Assembly: GCF_022701215.1 (NCBI RefSeq)
Contig: NZ_CP089976.1
Location: 1,260,001 to 1,292,000, forward strand
DNA: 32,000 bases
Reading direction: 5' to 3'
From: Moraxella nasovis
Lineage (GTDB): Bacteria > Pseudomonadota > Gammaproteobacteria > Pseudomonadales > Moraxellaceae
The notes beneath the pieces are model-generated. The model saw nothing but the letters and a program-made list of their open reading frames with translations. It was not told the DNA's origin and searched no databases. Made by a program: the position numbers and the translations under genes. Positions 4,631-23,444 of the stretch are shown in pieces. Within the stretch, counting starts at the first letter, position 1, and every line of letters starts with the position of its first letter.

Positions 4631-6064
<1,434 letters not shown>

Positions 6065-6134
6065 TAAAAGACACCCAAGTAAAGCAATGGCGTTTTACTT
6101 GGGTTGTGTTGCAACGAAATGATTGGGAGATTCA

Positions 6135-6551
6135 ATGGCTACATTTAAATGTCGTGTAGTGAGTGCTCGTGAAGAGTTATACGCTGGCGATGTCAGTTTA
6201 TTGATTGCTAAGGGTCATGATGGCGAAGTGGGTATTTTGGCAGGTCATACACCGCTAATCACGCTACTAAAGCCTGGGGCATTGCGTATTAAGAACAGCG
6301 AAGGTGCTGAAGAAGTAATTTATGTTTCTGGCGGTGTTTTAGAAGTGCAGCCAAACATTGTTACTGTTTTGGCTGACTCTGCTGAACGTGCTCATGATCT
6401 AGATGAAGCGAAGATTTCTGAAGCACGTCGTGCAGCTGAACAGATGCTGGCAAATCAGAGCAGCACAGTTCAGACGAACGCTGCTTTGGCTGCTCTTGCT
6501 GAGTCTGTTGCTCAGCTACAAACAATCCAGAAATACAAAAACCGTGCGTAA
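6135..6551 (+). CDS. atpC: F0F1 ATP synthase subunit epsilon
   Basis: The 138-aa product was read from the ATG at 6135, with SD gggaga 5 nt upstream. The tracked ORF starts 4 codons earlier at a TTG. The protein has an N-terminal beta-sandwich (VVSAREELYAGDV...GILAGHTPLIT) and a C-terminal helical hairpin. Confidence 0.92.
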   Translation: MATFKCRVVSAREELYAGDVSLLIAKGHDGEVGILAGHTPLITLLKPGALRIKNSEGAEEVIYVSGGVLEVQPNIVTVLADSAERAHDLDEAKISEARRAAEQMLANQSSTVQTNAALAALAESVAQLQTIQKYKNRA

Positions 6552-6580
6552 TATTTTGGGTTTGTTGGTTTATTAAGGAT

Positions 6581-7312
6581 ATGATCATGACAGCACTTGC
6601 AACGCCAGAAAAAGAAAAAACACCTTATATTCTAATCGTAGAAGATGATGAAAGATTGGCTCTGCTAACACAGGATTATCTGCAACGAAATGGCATGGAA
6701 GTTGCTATTGAAAGCAATGGAAATACAGCGATTCAGCGTATCATCGATGAACAGCCAGATCTTGTCTTACTTGATGTAATGCTGCCAGGTTGTGATGGCT
6801 TGACAGTGTGTCGTGAGGTGCGACCACACTATCAGCAACCCATCTTAATGCTGACTGCTAGAACTGATGATATGGATCAAGTGCTTGGTCTTGAGATGGG
6901 TGCAGATGATTATGTTGCCAAAACAGTTCAGCCAAGAGTCTTGCTTGCTCGAGTTCGTGCATTGCTAAGAAGATTGGATGGTGTGGCGAGTGAGGATTCT
7001 CCTCAGCGTTTGCAGTTTGATAATTTGGTGATTGATAATGGCGGCAGATCGGTTACTTTAGATGGTCAGTTGGTTGACTTCACAAGTGCCGAATATGACT
7101 TATTATGGCTTTTGGCATCAAACTCTGGCAAGATTTTGTCTCGTGAAGATATTTTTGAGCGTTTACGTGGTATCGAATACGACGGGCAAGATCGTTCCAT
7201 TGATGTGAGAGTTTCACGCATCCGACCAAAGATTGGTGATGATCCTGAAAATCCAAAACGTATTAAGACGGTTCGAAGTAAAGGTTATTTATTTGTCAAA
7301 GATGGTAATTGA
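6581..7312 (+). CDS. bfmR: OmpR/PhoB-family response regulator (BfmR/RstA-like)
   Basis: The 243-aa product has a receiver domain (ILIVEDDE...DLVLLDVMLPG) and a winged-helix output domain (TSAEYDLLWLLASNSGKILSREDIFERLRG...RIKTVRSKGYLFV). It closely resembles my memory of Acinetobacter BfmR, so the symbol is tentative. The start could instead be ATG 6587. Confidence 0.88.
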   Translation: MIMTALATPEKEKTPYILIVEDDERLALLTQDYLQRNGMEVAIESNGNTAIQRIIDEQPDLVLLDVMLPGCDGLTVCREVRPHYQQPILMLTARTDDMDQVLGLEMGADDYVAKTVQPRVLLARVRALLRRLDGVASEDSPQRLQFDNLVIDNGGRSVTLDGQLVDFTSAEYDLLWLLASNSGKILSREDIFERLRGIEYDGQDRSIDVRVSRIRPKIGDDPENPKRIKTVRSKGYLFVKDGN

Positions 7313-16882: not shown

Positions 16883-17593
16883 GGGGCTGTACTAGATTAA
16901 CCTTAAATCCCACACCACTTCCTAAGCACTTTAAGCTGATTAAAGCTAAACCATAGTTAAATCTAAACTTCCGTCTTTGATAAAAAGATGAATGTTTTTC
17001 TTGCCAATACCGTTGTATTTTCTCAAAATACGCTTAGCTTGAGACCAGAAGTTTTCTTGTACTTTGATGTGATTGGCTCTGTTTTTTTGTTTGTAAACTC
17101 TTTTGAATGGTTTATTCTAAAATGCTTAAAACACTCACATCTAAGGCATTATAGCTTTTATAACTATCCGTATAAACAATACTATCAGGCTTGATTTTAT
17201 TAGTGATGATGGGTATGAGCGTTGTTTGTTCGGTATCTTTTACAACTATGGTATAAACCCTACTATTTCTCTTTAAAAGACCAAATACAGCGGTTTTACT
17301 CCACGACAACGCTTGCCTTTACGAACACCACCAAAATAACTTTCATCAAGCTCTATTTTACCATCAAAGCGTGTTTGAGCTTCTAGGTTAAGATGGTATT
17401 GTATCAAAGTTAAGATTTTATGGTAAAATAACGCTGCTTAAGTTTGGGTGAATTTCAAGTAAATCACTGGCTGTTCTAGCAGTAACTTGGGCGATAAAAA
17501 ATTCAAGTAGCTTTAACTGAACTTTTTTAGTAGTTTACAACGAGTTATCTTCATTTTTGTCGTATAGCATGGTTGCTAATCTACGTCAGCCCC
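16883..17593 (-). mobile_element. Decayed IS1595-family element (IS1016-group-like, 711 bp), copy 1
   Basis: The imperfect terminal inverted repeats are GGGGCTGTACTAGATTA and GGGGCTGACGTAGATTA (14 of 17 match). The minus-strand translation gives MKITRCKLLKK..., ...AVFGLLKRNSRVYTIVVKD...KIKPDSIVYTDSYKSYNALDVS... and ...FRFN. These are typical of IS1016-type DDE transposases but are broken by several frameshifts and stops. I found no flanking target-site duplication. Confidence 0.85.
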
Positions 17594-17608: not shown

Positions 17609-17779
17609 TTACCTACCAAAAATCAATTTTAAAATAGCCCGTCCAAGCTTTCTTTCCCACCCGCCACGAGTGGTTGGCACGCCAAGTTTATTGGCAATTT
17701 TTAGCCTCAACCCTGTTAAGCCAACCAATCGTTTCCATGAAAAAGAAAAACCTGTGCCTTTTAATAATTTCTTACTCAT
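17609..17779 (-). CDS. Untracked small ORF encoding a 56-aa highly basic peptide (hypothetical)
   Basis: Hand translation gives MSKKLLKGTGFSFSWKRLVGLTGLRLKIANKLGVPTTRGGWERKLGRAILKLIFGR. It starts 11 nt after the stop of the H1-like gene on the same strand and ends 15 nt before the IS end. It has no convincing SD (only ggt), so its coding status is uncertain. Confidence 0.35.
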   Translation of the reverse strand: MSKKLLKGTGFSFSWKRLVGLTGLRLKIANKLGVPTTRGGWERKLGRAILKLIFGR

Positions 17780-17790
17780 ACCAAAAAAAA

Positions 17791-18132
17791 TTATTTTAGT
17801 AGTTTTTTGAGCAGCCGACCAATACCGCCCGTTGACTTTTCTTTTGCAGCACGAGCTTTTGCCATTTTCTCAGCCATCGCCCTACCTTCTTTGGTGCGCA
17901 AGTCCACTTTGCCGTCAGCACGTCTTTTAATGCTTGATGCGGTGGTTTTTTTGGTAGTAGAGTTACTTGCGGTTGTTTTAGTCGTTGTCCTCTTGGTAGT
18001 TGTTTTTTTGGCAGTTGTTTTGGCGGCTCGTGCTTTGGCTTGACGTGCTTTTTTGGCACGCTCTACCAATTCTTTGTATTCTTTGGTGCGTTTATCTACT
18101 TTGCCATCAGCAGTTTTTTTCAAAGTTGCCAT
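17791..18132 (-). CDS. Lys/Ala/Thr-rich hyperbasic protein, histone-H1-like (hypothetical DNA-binding)
   Basis: The 113-aa product has about 37 K+R against about 10 D+E by hand count. It has an internal repeat ADGKVDxRTKE...AKARAAK either side of a T/K-rich linker. A strong SD (aggaga) is present, and it is the fourth gene of a tightly spaced operon. Confidence 0.7.
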   Translation of the reverse strand: MATLKKTADGKVDKRTKEYKELVERAKKARQAKARAAKTTAKKTTTKRTTTKTTASNSTTKKTTASSIKRRADGKVDLRTKEGRAMAEKMAKARAAKEKSTGGIGRLLKKLLK

Positions 18133-18153
18133 AATTTTCTCCTAAATTTTAGA

Positions 18154-18570
18154 TCAATTTTCGTCTTCTTCGTATTCAATGACCAAATCGTCAACTTCAT
18201 CAACAAAATCATTAAAAATTTCACTTGCTCTATCTTCTGATACGTCCAAAATGTCGGCAAATGAAAAATAATTTGCCATTTCATCAATACTAATGACTAA
18301 ATCAGAAGCCAAAACATCAAGACAAACTAGCAATACTGCTTCTTTGTCGGTAATATTTTCGGCAGATGTGGCAAGATATTCATCAAACGCATCATCGTCT
18401 AGCATGTCAATGTGTTTGATCTCTTCGGCAACGACTGCATCCAAATCGCCAAGTCCTAGTTCGGTTGCTAATTGTGCGACACAGCTTTTGGCAATTTCGT
18501 CATATTCGCCACCATCTGCAATCACAGATGTTGCAATAAAAGGGGCAAGATTTTTGCTTGTTAGTGCCAT
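18154..18570 (-). CDS. Hyperacidic protein, possibly TerB-like (hypothetical)
   Basis: The 138-aa product has about 37 D+E against 5 K+R by hand count. Two segments (SVIADGGEYDEIAKSCVAQLATELGL and LDVLASDLVISIDEMANYFSFADILDVSEDRA) fit the TerB-type pattern xxA.aDG.i...E...l..ia..Lgl. That family call is a weak recollection. An SD (gaggt) is present. Confidence 0.65.
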   Translation of the reverse strand: MALTSKNLAPFIATSVIADGGEYDEIAKSCVAQLATELGLGDLDAVVAEEIKHIDMLDDDAFDEYLATSAENITDKEAVLLVCLDVLASDLVISIDEMANYFSFADILDVSEDRASEIFNDFVDEVDDLVIEYEEDEN

Positions 18571-18598: not shown

Positions 18599-19123
18599 TT
18601 AGTTCATAAAAAAATAAGCAGCTAGGGCTAGTAGGATAGCCGCCCCAATAATCCACACCCAAATTGGCATACCTGCTGACGTTTCTACTTTGGATTGTGA
18701 TTCGTATTCGTAAGTAATATCAAAGCCATTCTTGCCTTTGCAGGATTTATCCACTTGACCAAAAATTTGATATTGCAACATTTCTTGTTGTAAAATCGCT
18801 AAGCTTTCACCTGTCCACATTTTATTAAAACCAACTTTTTGACCATCACCCAAAACAAGCCATTCGCCATCTCCCACAAAGCAAGCGCTTTCTGCAATAT
18901 ACCATTTACTTCTCGGTCCATTTTTGCCTTGTTCGATCTCTTGATGGGTCAAAAAAAGTTCATCCATACCCGTATCTGGGCAGACATTTTGTTTGTAAAA
19001 TTTTGCTCTTAGTTCAGAAAGCGTTGTATTCGGGTACTTTTTTAGATAAGCGTGCATCATGCCCAGTGCGGTACGATTTTGACTTTTTCCAGTTACTGTT
19101 GCTGTTGAAATTTGCCTTGTCAT
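18599..19123 (-). CDS. Tail-anchored membrane protein, unknown function
   Basis: The 174-aa product has a soluble domain of about 145 aa and a single C-terminal TM helix (MPIWVWIIGAAILLALAAYFFMN). I recognise no named family. Confidence 0.65.
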   Translation of the reverse strand: MTRQISTATVTGKSQNRTALGMMHAYLKKYPNTTLSELRAKFYKQNVCPDTGMDELFLTHQEIEQGKNGPRSKWYIAESACFVGDGEWLVLGDGQKVGFNKMWTGESLAILQQEMLQYQIFGQVDKSCKGKNGFDITYEYESQSKVETSAGMPIWVWIIGAAILLALAAYFFMN

Positions 19124-19147: not shown

Positions 19148-19525
19148 TTACGACAAAGTGGCGATTAATTTTGAGCCAAATTGTCTGGTATTCCAGTTTT
19201 CATCATAATCAAGACCGATTTTATCGGCAATTTCTCTTAATGCCTCTTTGGTGTTGGCATACACTCTAAAACTAGCAACACTGCCATTATCTAATATACG
19301 CACGCAATATTCGCCAAATTGTGCAATGCCGTCTTCGCCATATTCTTTGATAAGTTTGCTACCAAACTGTCTTGTCGTCCAGTTGTCATCATAATCAAAA
19401 CCAACTTCTTGTGAAATGGCTCGCAAACTTGCAATGACATTGTCATATTCTTTTAATACACTAATACTGCCGTTTTCATGTTGCGAAACAAGATATTCGC
19501 CATAAGCGACTGATTTTACTGCCAT
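19148..19525 (-). CDS. Small cytoplasmic protein made of two tandem copies of a ~55-aa domain, unknown function
   Basis: The product is 125 aa when read from ATG 19525, which has SD aggag 7 nt upstream. The tracked ORF extends 34 codons further upstream without an SD. The two copies share GEY..NGS..LR.I...G.DYD.NW.TRQFGSKLI. Confidence 0.68.
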   Translation of the reverse strand: MAVKSVAYGEYLVSQHENGSISVLKEYDNVIASLRAISQEVGFDYDDNWTTRQFGSKLIKEYGEDGIAQFGEYCVRILDNGSVASFRVYANTKEALREIADKIGLDYDENWNTRQFGSKLIATLS

Positions 19526-19622
19526 AATACTCACTCCTATAAATAAATATTTGCTTTGGTTGTTTTTTAGCTTAGGAAAGCAAAGATTTTGCAATCCAAT
19601 CAAAAACAATAAGACACCACCA

Positions 19623-19643
19623 AACATTAAAAATGTTAACGTT
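19623..19643. promoter_or_regulatory. Cluster of AAC(A/G)TT half-sites (AACATT-aaa-AATGTT-AACGTT), candidate operator
   Basis: This inverted repeat was read directly from the divergent intergenic region between the cassette and the XRE gene. Confidence 0.3.
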
Positions 19644-19660
19644 TGTAATTTTAAAATACA

Positions 19661-19677
19661 TCATTTATAATAAATGA
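19661..19677. promoter_or_regulatory. Perfect 17-bp palindrome TCATTTAT-A-ATAAATGA overlapping a TATAAT hexamer, candidate XRE operator
   Basis: The palindrome has 8-bp perfect arms and lies about 80 nt upstream of the XRE start. An extended -10-like TGTAGAAT follows at 19685-19692. Confidence 0.4.
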
Positions 19678-19755
19678 TTATTATGTAGAATCCACCAACA
19701 AATCCGACTTTTTACACCCACTTTTTCATCATCCTACCCACAAAAAAGGGACTTT

Positions 19756-20121
19756 ATGGACATCACCAAAAATCTTGCCAACCTTAGAAAAGAACATCAT
19801 CTTACTCAAGAACAAATGGCGGAAAAATTACAAATGTCTAAAAATGGTTATGCCAAATTAGAGCGTGGTGAAAGTAGGGTTACCATTGAACATTTGTTTA
19901 AAATTGCCCAAGAATTTAACATAGATGCCAGTGAATTATTAAAAGAGCATAAAGACATAAATTTTTTATTGGGTGATAATAATACAAATTATGCCAACCG
20001 CTATTATGGCGAGACAACCATACAAATAGAAAAACTAGAACTCATCATCGCCCACAAGGACGAGCTGCTTGCTCAAAAAGACAAAGAAATCACTCTGCTA
20101 CGACAACTGCTGGATAAATAA
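19756..20121 (+). CDS. XRE-family (HTH_3) transcriptional regulator with a C-terminal coiled-coil
   Basis: The 121-aa product has LRKEHHLTQEQMAEKLQMSKNGYAKLERGESRVTIEHLFKIAQEFNI, a canonical Cro/CI-type HTH. Its C-terminal heptad-like segment is IEKLELIIAHKDELLAQKDKEITLLRQLL. It is divergent from the minus-strand cassette. Confidence 0.85.
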   Translation: MDITKNLANLRKEHHLTQEQMAEKLQMSKNGYAKLERGESRVTIEHLFKIAQEFNIDASELLKEHKDINFLLGDNNTNYANRYYGETTIQIEKLELIIAHKDELLAQKDKEITLLRQLLDK

Positions 20122-20175: not shown

Positions 20176-20677
20176 ATGAAAACCCTAGCAATCCTAGGCG
20201 GTATGAGCCACCAAAGCACCGCCATTTATTATAACCAAATCAATGACTTAGTCCACAATCCCTAGGGGCAAATCATTCAGCACGCCTGCTTGTACTGAGT
20301 GTGGATTTTGAGACGATTGCCAATTTGCAGCGACTTGACGATTGGCAGACCATGGGCAGCTGCTTGCTTACGATGCCAAAACCTTAGAGCAGGCAGGGGC
20401 AGACGGCATACTACTTGCCACCAATACCATGCACAAAGTCGCCCATAAGATACAGTCTGCCATCAGCATTCCATTTTTGCATTTATTGCAAGCCACAGCC
20501 CTACAACTAAGCACGCATGGCATCACCAAAGTAGGATTGCTTGGCACACGTTTTACCATGTCGGACGGCTTCTATCAGGCATATATGGCGGATTTTGGGA
20601 TTGATGTGATTACCCCCAATGCCGACACACAAGACGAAATTCATCGCATTATTTTTGATGAATTGTGCTTGGCATAA
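20176..20677 (+). pseudogene. Aspartate/glutamate racemase family (YgeA-like) pseudogene
   Basis: MKTLAILGGMSHQSTAIYYNQIN... runs into a stop. Homology continues in a second frame (LGANHSARLLVLSVDFETI...) and then a third (LLATNTMHKVAHKIQSAISIPFLHL...GLLGTRFTM...IIFDELCL). This means at least 2 frameshifts. The last ~70 aa expected from my memory of E. coli YgeA are missing. Confidence 0.75.
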
Positions 20678-22421: not shown

Positions 22422-23444
22422 TTAACGCAGTCTGCGGTAGTTAGCAGCAGCAGAACGAGCACCTGCAATACTTGCGATGAACGTTAGTAGTGCACTGATT
22501 AGCCAGAATAGACCGCCGTATAATGCTGCTTTACGAGCATGATCTTCAGCTTGTGCTAGACCTTGTTCGATGTCTTGACGAGTTTCTTCGATGGTTTTCT
22601 CAGTTTTTGCTTTGTACTCTTGGTAAGTTTGAGTGGCTTCGGTACGCACTTGTTCAGCTTGAGCACGGCTTAAGCCTTGAGCTTGTAGACGGTTGATGAA
22701 CTCATCGCTTGCTAGTACGCCTTCAATGTGAGCCATGCGTGCTTTTGCATGTTCGTCTAGGTTTTTCCAAGTGTCAATGCTTGTAAAATCAAGTGATTGC
22801 ACTTCTTCTTTGGTGTCTTTTAGTAGGTTTTGAACTACAGTAGCGGTTGCACTGATTTGAGCTTGGTCGATACCGTCTAGGTTTTTTGCTAGAATGGCTT
22901 CGATGTCTTCACGGCTAACATCGCCTTTCACGCTTTCGTAAGCTGTGCGTGCTTTATTAGCAATTTCGCTGTTTGCCAATAGGCCAGAGGCTGCAGCACC
23001 TGTACCTGCAGCAGATGCCGCAGCACCTGTTACGCTGCTTACTGCACTGCCTGCACCGCTTGCTATGCTACCTACTGCATTACCTGCACCACGCACGATG
23101 CTAGTCGCACCACTCATGGCAAAGTAGCTCGTTGCTACGATGATAACCGCTGCTGTTAATACACCTGTTAGTGTTGCATCTTTTGGGTGAATGGCAGTGC
23201 CATCACCTAAGATGGATTCAGGGGCAGATGCTTTAACGGCAAAATAACCTGCCACAAAAGCACTTAATAATGCTGTGATAATGGTATAAATACCTGCTGT
23301 AATGCCTGCACCTTGTAGATCTAACGACAAGAAAGAACCAAGAACCAGTGCCAATGCTGCCATCGCAATGATCACAACAAGACCCATTAAAAGACCGGCA
23401 AAAATGCCACGCCATGAAGGTCTGGTCATAGAGATTACTGCCAT
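22422..23444 (-). CDS. Membrane protein with an N-terminal helix bundle, a Gly/Ala/Ser low-complexity segment, a charged helical domain and a C-terminal TM helix (unknown function)
   Basis: The 340-aa product has about 3-4 N-terminal TM helices. Next come GAGNAVGSIASGAGSAVSSVTGAAASAAGTGAAASG, a helical region of about 150 aa rich in E/Q/K/A, and a final TM helix LYGGLFWLISALLTFIASIAG. An SD (aggag) is present. Confidence 0.72.
   Translation of the reverse strand: MAVISMTRPSWRGIFAGLLMGLVVIIAMAALALVLGSFLSLDLQGAGITAGIYTIITALLSAFVAGYFAVKASAPESILGDGTAIHPKDATLTGVLTAAVIIVATSYFAMSGATSIVRGAGNAVGSIASGAGSAVSSVTGAAASAAGTGAAASGLLANSEIANKARTAYESVKGDVSREDIEAILAKNLDGIDQAQISATATVVQNLLKDTKEEVQSLDFTSIDTWKNLDEHAKARMAHIEGVLASDEFINRLQAQGLSRAQAEQVRTEATQTYQEYKAKTEKTIEETRQDIEQGLAQAEDHARKAALYGGLFWLISALLTFIASIAGARSAAANYRRLR

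Follow-up and report, generated by a model that had tools for sequence, protein, structure and literature searches.

The window analysed here is a stretch of 32,000 nucleotides (nt) from Moraxella nasovis (contig NZ_CP089976.1, positions 1,260,001 to 1,292,000 of the forward strand). The interval 17791..18570 of this window holds exactly two open reading frames (ORFs), both on the minus strand: gene C, which encodes a hyperacidic protein, and gene D, which encodes a strongly basic one. The two are a conserved gene pair, and with this pair as its invariant core an operon, A-B-C-D(-E), is shared by Moraxella and host-associated Bacteroidota; the charge mirror of the two is a family-wide trait. 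C is a divergent member of a known superfamily (TerB), and its obligate polycationic partner D and the operon are undescribed in all libraries queried. The reading favoured here, to which a probability of roughly 45% is given, is that C would bind and neutralise D in a ratio of about 1:1 at the membrane, and that ionic or envelope signals would modulate this binding and free D for an anionic target.

The C protein of the window contains 37 aspartate and glutamate residues and 5 lysine and arginine residues, which gives an isoelectric point (pI) of 4.05 and a charge of -32.4 at pH 7. D contains 37 lysine and arginine residues and 10 aspartate and glutamate residues (pI 11.06, charge +26.5 at pH 7). 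These charges had been counted by hand in a first-pass annotation of the window, made from its letters and ORFs, and the computed composition, pI and charge prove the counts to be correct for both proteins. The spacing of 21 nt between the two minus-strand genes (18133..18153) and the Shine-Dalgarno sequence that it had reported for each were likewise borne out: AGGAG lies 6 nt upstream of the ATG of D and GAGG 5 nt upstream of that of C. The two ORFs are in the same reading frame. Across the families C has a median net charge of -24, D one of +23 and the small basic protein E one of +14, and the charges of C and D sum to -2.3 ± 3.4 per pair (78 pairs). Two TerB-like paralogues that do not stand beside D are far less acidic (-10 and +3), in what is a small sample.

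Conservation of the pair was followed by a scan that took one genome for each species and had an alignment of D as its only seed. Relatives were found in 195 stretches and 80 loci were returned, the six-frame ORFs of which were searched with hidden Markov models built from the proteins of the window, of M. marmotae (L001), of a metagenomic Moraxella (L002) and of a Muribaculaceae-type contig (L006). The 80 loci, from different species of two phyla, represent Moraxella, Capnocytophaga, Porphyromonas, Muribaculaceae, Paludibacteraceae and rumen Bacteroidales; cultured carriers among them are Moraxella porci DSM 25326 (L010), Capnocytophaga periodontitidis (L023) and Porphyromonas pasteri JCM 30531 (L066). 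In 77 of the loci, C and D share a strand and are no more than 50 nt apart, 47 in the order D→C and 30 in the order C→D; one of the remaining three has a gap of 209 nt, one ends at a contig edge and one has no C. The first-pass annotation would have abandoned the pairing if the genes were never adjacent in other genomes, and adjacency, in both gene orders, is what was found. The stop codon of D and the start codon of C share one base in many D→C loci (5001..5258 and 5258..5686 in L006, for example), which points to coupled translation of D and C. Of the 78 loci with C, 70 have B and 58 have A; E is present in 45 loci, and at least one of A and B is found with the pair in nearly all loci. The earlier comparison with an antidote and a toxin, taken as a self-contained two-gene module, is not supported, as the operon around the pair is larger and includes A, B and often E.

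The adjacency of C and D outlasts the inversion of gene order, the distance between two phyla and many changes of neighbourhood, while A and E shift position. The divergence matrices of C and D correlate at 0.91, the highest value among the component pairs, and the partial correlation given B is 0.72 for this pair vs 0.27-0.48 for the others. The pairing is not a matter of chance: both proteins have conserved homologues, and in both phyla the genes are adjacent and mirror each other in charge. Fusions of C to D were not found among the long members of the C family, the extensions of which are membrane anchors or unrelated segments.

The window C protein matches no Pfam family at an E-value of ≤1, and thus does not reach the gathering threshold of the TerB family PF05099 (24.4 bits); nor does it match any NCBIfam, PHROG or PADLOC family. 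Profile and sequence searches of the PDB with C gave nothing significant, with 2ou3 on top at an E-value of 0.46. Its orthologues lead further. BLASTP aligns window C end to end with a TerB-positive protein of L006 (25% identity, E-value 5e-10), and this orthologue of 142 aa scores 35.9 bits against Pfam TerB. An hhalign comparison of the Moraxella C family with the Bacteroidota family gave a probability of 99.94% and an E-value of 4.8e-37 over 136 columns, and 22 of 24 Bacteroidota orthologues match PF05099 at an E-value of ≤0.01 (best 3.9e-13). The AlphaFold2 (AF2) model of C has seven helices, with a predicted local distance difference test score (pLDDT) of 91.6 and a predicted template modelling score of 0.85. 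When this model was compared with the PDB by Foldseek, the only high-probability targets were 2ou3, a COG3793 tellurite-resistance protein, and 2h5n, which is PG1108 (both with probability 1.0 and template modelling (TM) scores of 0.54-0.62, at E-values of just 0.05-0.1); all other targets had TM scores of about 0.34 or less, with 0.25 for the next in rank. PG1108 was rejected as an orthologue of C: the C protein of Porphyromonas pasteri gives no sequence match to it.

Two repeated acidic motifs of the form DG....E are the hallmark of TerB, the domains of which are reportedly acidic in general and metal-binding. The first-pass annotation had seen two segments fitting a TerB-like helical repeat, and these are supported by ADGGEYDE at residues 18-25 and ASDLVISIDE at residues 88-97 of window C, the second with D90 and E97. 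In an alignment of 79 sequences the first motif is conserved as A-D-G-E-Y/F-x-E-x-E, and D90 and E97 of the second are kept in 95% and 100%, so the C family does carry the duplicated acidic motif, with the first D of the acidic motif replaced by G in most Moraxella members. The TerB link, which had been put forward with little confidence, therefore stands at the level of fold and superfamily, where homology, the AF2 model and Foldseek agree, and falls in the direct test against Pfam PF05099, where window C itself stays below the threshold. Judged by homology and the predicted helical bundle, C is a divergent TerB-fold protein and a member of the TerB superfamily. When 1.84 billion representative proteins were searched with a profile of the C family, only 86 clusters were retrieved at an E-value of ≤1e-3. 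The family is a small, specific TerB subfamily; 53 clusters of database relatives, all about 135 aa long, are attributable to Moraxella. Some members of the family are self-anchored, P0233 by a transmembrane helix at its N-terminus and P0201 by a long hydrophobic tail at its C-terminus. PMC11003894, citing Turkovicova 2016, reports that TerB partners TerC, a membrane protein.

D has relatives in 117 database clusters, close ones in Moraxella and more distant ones of about 85 aa in Bacteroidales. It consists of two helical repeats with the motif x-G-K-V-D-K/L-R-T-K-E (GKVDKRTKE; in the window, ADGKVD-x-RTKE), each followed by a helix rich in alanine, lysine and arginine. The D, R, T and K of the motif are invariant in both repeats across the family alignment, and the internal repeat is detected by BLASTP at an E-value of 2e-9. 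The linker is short in Bacteroidota and expanded in Moraxella, where it is rich in threonine and lysine. The C-terminal 11-14 residues are strongly amphipathic, with a mean hydrophobic moment of 0.77 vs 0.30 for internal windows; they read GIGRLLKKLLK in the window and L.NR[LI]KRLF in Bacteroidota. This tail presumably resembles the membrane-targeting helix of MinD.

The first-pass annotation had called D an H1-like nucleic-acid-binding protein. This label was not upheld, since no match to the winged helix of linker histones or to Hc1 was found in Pfam, NCBIfam or the PDB; the H1-like look of D is due to the T/K-rich linker expansion, a stretch of lysine, threonine and alanine that is specific to Moraxella. 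D matches no Pfam, NCBIfam, PHROG, PADLOC or PDB family, the best Pfam E-value being 0.1 for low-complexity silk and mucin models, and PDB searches with D, as with B, gave insignificant matches only. As far as these comparisons go, D is a new protein family and not an H1 or Hc1 histone.

The operon is tied to the inner membrane through B, which has a conserved cytoplasmic alpha/beta domain (about residues 1-140) and a transmembrane helix at residues 154-173 (AF2 pLDDT 86). Most Bacteroidota B proteins, such as those of L006 and L057, add a periplasmic OmpA-type peptidoglycan-binding domain. The cytoplasmic domain of window B is confidently modelled and has no Foldseek match in the PDB or BFVD, and it may be a new fold. 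Moraxella porci DSM 25326 (L010) has two B genes, at 5128..6006 and 6045..6542; the first encodes two tandem copies of the cytoplasmic domain, with no obvious transmembrane helix.

A is built of two tandem domains with the motif ...LREIA..GF.YD..WNTRQFGSKLI, a domain that may be SAP/HeH-like. In some Bacteroidales (L068 at about 5557..6960, L025 at about 5122..6177 and L056 at about 5978..6967) this two-repeat region is joined to a PDDEXK_4 nuclease and to another domain at the C-terminus, and in L013 (2753..3532) it is joined directly to the B domain. These fusions are Rosetta-stone links within the module, and they hint at an involvement of nucleic acids. E has the motif GFSFSWKR..G.PTTR.G.ERK.G and belongs to no database family; its homologues are found in M. 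marmotae (L001, 6745..6930), Capnocytophaga and Bacteroidales. In Bacteroidales it usually lies directly upstream of a channel of about 570 aa of the Ion_trans family, and it stands beside the channel in 13 loci. The Bacteroidales clusters also commonly contain this channel (50 loci), a charged coiled-coil protein of about 82 aa (47 loci), PD-(D/E)xK-like proteins (27 loci) and helix-turn-helix (HTH)-like proteins.

L006 combines all five families in one same-strand cluster, in which D overlaps the start of the TerB-positive C gene and the OmpA-bearing B follows, with A upstream and E directly upstream of the Ion_trans gene. A highly charged coiled-coil protein of about 72-82 aa and a domain of about 104 aa are encoded in the same contig (7251..7469 and 6846..7163), with equivalents in about 47 loci; the 104-aa domain is also fused to the C-terminus of B in L057, and neither has a database family. 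The window proteins A-E have no match in PADLOC-DB v2 at an E-value of ≤0.1. The C protein of L006 matches PDC-S48 over just a 37-residue TerB-like stretch, and its B protein matches ZorB only via OmpA. Families A, B, D and E match no Pfam, NCBIfam, PHROG or PADLOC family.

In the window, A-B-C-D-E are five same-strand genes that run from 19525 to 17609 with spacings of 11-28 nt (Table 1). The likely start of gene A is the ATG at 19525, which is preceded by AGGAG, rather than that of a longer ORF from 19627. A divergent XRE-family gene lies ahead of A (Pfam HTH_3, E-value 1.5e-15; NCBIfam RstR-like, 5e-15, below the cutoff) and is presumed from its position to regulate the operon. A small divergent HTH gene also lies ahead of gene A in M. 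marmotae, and in L008 the corresponding place is taken by a divergent ORF of 75 aa without annotation.

Table 1. Features of the A-B-C-D-E operon and its upstream region in the window.
Feature	Position	Strand	Length	Description
Gene C, acidic	18154..18570	-	138 aa	Divergent; TerB fold (predicted)
Gene D, basic	17791..18132	-	113 aa	Two-repeat helical protein with amphipathic tail
Gene B	18599..19123	-	174 aa	Cytoplasmic alpha/beta domain and C-terminal transmembrane helix
Gene A	19148..19525	-	125 aa	Two domains of ~60 aa in tandem
Gene E	17609..17779	-	56 aa	Basic peptide; 11 nt downstream of D
XRE-family regulator (presumed; HTH_3, RstR-like)	19756..20121	+		Divergent from the operon
Intergenic region, gene A/XRE gene	19526..19755		230 bp	AT-rich; promoter-like hexamers and short palindromes (consensus matches only)

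The cassette is flanked by housekeeping genes (hemA, an aminotransferase gene, prfC, polA and tuf), and its G+C content is 38.7% vs 42-43% in the flanks. Just past the 3' end of the operon, on the minus strand at 17112..17407, lie fragments of an IS1595-family (ISXO2-like) transposase with a broken reading frame, presumably a decayed insertion sequence (IS). Beside the cassette on its other side, at 20342..20677 on the plus strand, is a truncated Asp/Glu racemase gene. Its product of 111 aa covers only positions ~63-167 of a 236-position profile, and the gene is therefore probably a pseudogene left by rearrangement. An ORF of 340 aa between prfC and polA (22422..23444, minus strand) has no Pfam match at an E-value of ≤0.001.

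Within Moraxella the A-B-C-D(-E) cassette is found in three different chromosomal neighbourhoods: that of the window, that of M. marmotae and that of the metagenomic Moraxella loci L002-L005. The module has moved between Bacteroidota and Moraxella: the operon, a common one among Muribaculaceae and other animal-associated Bacteroidales, has crossed into Moraxella. Relatives of D and B were absent from 2.9 million viral contigs of IMG/VR and from 72,556 plasmids of PLSDB, and literature searches found no description of a module of TerB, OmpA and basic proteins.

The idea of a stoichiometric neutraliser or chaperone is the most economical account of the charge matching, the adjacency, the start/stop overlap and the correlated divergence of C and D. 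According to this reading, C and D would be made together and form a charge-neutral complex of about 1:1 on the cytoplasmic face of the membrane. C would act as an acidic, probably cation-binding module of the TerB type that keeps D, and perhaps also E, soluble and inactive. An ionic change or a change in the envelope, sensed via the acidic TerB motifs, may loosen the complex, and in Bacteroidota the OmpA anchor of B and the neighbouring channel of voltage-gated type could be coupled to this loosening. The freed D would then bind an anionic target via its helical repeats, directed to the membrane by its C-terminal amphipathic helix. The output might be an adaptation to envelope or ion stress, or an abortive, defence-like response. 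A membrane theme that runs through the helix and OmpA domain of B, the tail of D, the self-anchored C members, the position of E beside Ion_trans and the reported partnership of TerB with TerC is consistent with such a scheme.

Several points weigh against this reading. From pair to pair, the net charge of D does not vary with that of C (r = -0.11, 78 pairs). Because the charge range is narrow and covariation is absent, the matching could reflect two independently constrained proteins; by the same narrowness, this r says little for or against. Shared phylogeny and the split into two gene-order clades both confound the mirror-tree signal, and the 80 loci come from related species, so that 77 is not a count of independent events. 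The cytoplasmic domain of B has no fold match in Foldseek searches of the PDB and BFVD, and a sequence search of PDB chains found no relative of A, which leaves the output of the system unconstrained. The Moraxella cassette of the window has neither an Ion_trans channel nor an OmpA domain. Finally, it is we who infer that this TerB subfamily binds cations, that the tail of D binds membranes and that the system is linked to an ion channel. A wider version of the reading, in which the pair would be the switch of an undescribed membrane-anchored signalling or effector system, shared by horizontal transfer between Moraxella and Bacteroidota of the gut and mouth, is tentative and on the doubtful side. 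C, a folded TerB polyanion, would here cage D, and perhaps E, stoichiometrically, until a cation flux or an envelope trigger, sensed together with the OmpA-anchored B and a channel of voltage-gated type, released D onto the membrane or the nucleoid.

The absence of covariation would be expected if C and D were co-members of a membrane complex centred on B, with no neutralisation between them and with an adjacency that reflects co-regulation only. C would then use its charge for cations, and D would use its own for a different ligand, namely anionic lipid, peptidoglycan precursors or polyphosphate. Conservation in the cluster extends to A, B and E as well, and TerB domains are reportedly acidic in general and metal-binding (Anantharaman et al. 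2012). This explanation has to face the adjacency of C and D, which survives inversion and every change of context where A and E move, together with charge sums that lie tightly around zero, a divergence correlation that is the tightest among the component pairs and the much lower acidity of TerB-like paralogues without a D partner. It is considered unlikely. A still less probable explanation takes D as a histone-like binder of DNA or RNA that is titrated by C through mimicry of nucleic acid. D is indeed extremely rich in lysine and arginine and has in Moraxella a K/T/A linker like an H1 tail, C is a compact helical bundle that displays some 24-32 negative charges, and the fusions of the A domain to nucleases hint at a nucleic-acid link. 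However, D matches no histone-like or DNA-binding family and no solved structure, the H1-like linker is peculiar to one lineage, most homologues having a short one, and the fold of C resembles TerB-like proteins rather than known DNA mimics. The conserved partners, moreover, are membrane proteins (B and Ion_trans), and D ends in an amphipathic helix.

That D is a toxic polycation, which disrupts membranes or condenses the nucleoid, and C its antidote, in a mobile addiction or defence cassette akin to toxin-antitoxin (TA) or abortive-infection systems, seems improbable to a similar degree as the co-member explanation. Adjacency, opposite charge and the start/stop overlap fit a toxin and its antidote, but the pair is never a stand-alone two-gene unit, and both gene orders are seen where TA families usually keep one. 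A divergent XRE-type regulator stands beside the operon in the window and in M. marmotae. Mobility is suggested by the three Moraxella neighbourhoods, by the IS1595 fragment and truncated racemase that adjoin the window cassette, and by a sporadic distribution that crosses phyla; against this, the module is absent from the IMG/VR viral contigs and PLSDB plasmids. In Bacteroidales, A is fused to PD-(D/E)xK nuclease domains or has them as neighbours, and the classical ter operon inhibits phage. Window A-E nevertheless match no TA, PADLOC or PHROG family, the matches of L006 are limited to generic TerB and OmpA, and what is strongly conserved in D is a specific motif, with D, R, T and K invariant in each repeat, and not the generic features of a cationic peptide.

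If the wider switch version of the neutralisation reading were true, it would describe a prokaryotic and genetically hard-wired polyanion/polycation switch that uses four families (A, B, D and E) without a library match. If C and D formed a complex sensitive to salt or cations, it would be a simple bacterial case of polyanion/polycation regulation, so far known mainly from eukaryotic chromatin chaperones, and it might reveal a new envelope-stress or defence mechanism. TerB domains are widespread and their mechanism is poorly understood; this subfamily has an obligate, charge-matched and co-evolving partner, which offers a testable handle on TerB binding and regulation.

Among known systems, type II toxin-antitoxin modules resemble C-D in their adjacent small genes, coupled expression, plausible neutralisation and nearby XRE-type regulator. 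No TA family matches C or D, and the pair sits instead in a cluster of 4-5 genes in Moraxella to more than 10 in Bacteroidales, with variable order. The Bacteroidota B proteins have the topology of the MotB, ZorB and Pal anchors: the N-terminus lies in the cytoplasm and is followed by a single transmembrane helix and an OmpA-type domain in the periplasm. Their weak matches to PADLOC ZorB and NCBIfam MotB run through the OmpA domain. They differ in having no MotA or ZorA partner and a large cytoplasmic domain without a fold match, and window B has no OmpA domain.

Neisseria DMP12 and Haemophilus HI1450 are acidic DNA mimics that bind HU, and they are not known to be encoded with their partner as a conserved adjacent pair. 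They share with C-D the opposition of a small acidic and a small basic protein, whereas C has a TerB-like fold, D is not HU-like and the context is one of membrane proteins. None of the known mimics (Ocr, ArdA, DMP12 and HI1450) is among the 50 listed Foldseek PDB matches of C, which counts for little because such mimics are structurally diverse. Near-complete neutralisation of a lysine-rich polycation by a polyanion is known from prothymosin-alpha with linker histone H1 and from acidic histone chaperones, the latter a comparison already made in the first-pass annotation. C differs from prothymosin-alpha in being, as modelled, a folded helical bundle (pLDDT 92) and not a disordered polyanion, and D differs from H1 in having no winged-helix domain.

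Another comparison is that with the TerB family itself (PF05099; 2ou3 and 2h5n; TerB of terZABCDEF, an operon for resistance to tellurite, phage and colicin). None of terC, terD, terZ and terA was found near the window cassette or among the annotated neighbours in related loci; in place of a classical ter operon, the window has A, B, D, E, the XRE gene and an IS fragment as neighbours of C. To our knowledge, an obligate polycationic partner has not been described for TerB. Window C has no Pfam TerB score, and with a charge of -24 to -32 the C proteins greatly exceed in acidity the TerB-like paralogues that lack D as a partner, yet C has in common with the family the all-helical fold, the duplicated acidic motifs and a membrane-proximal context.

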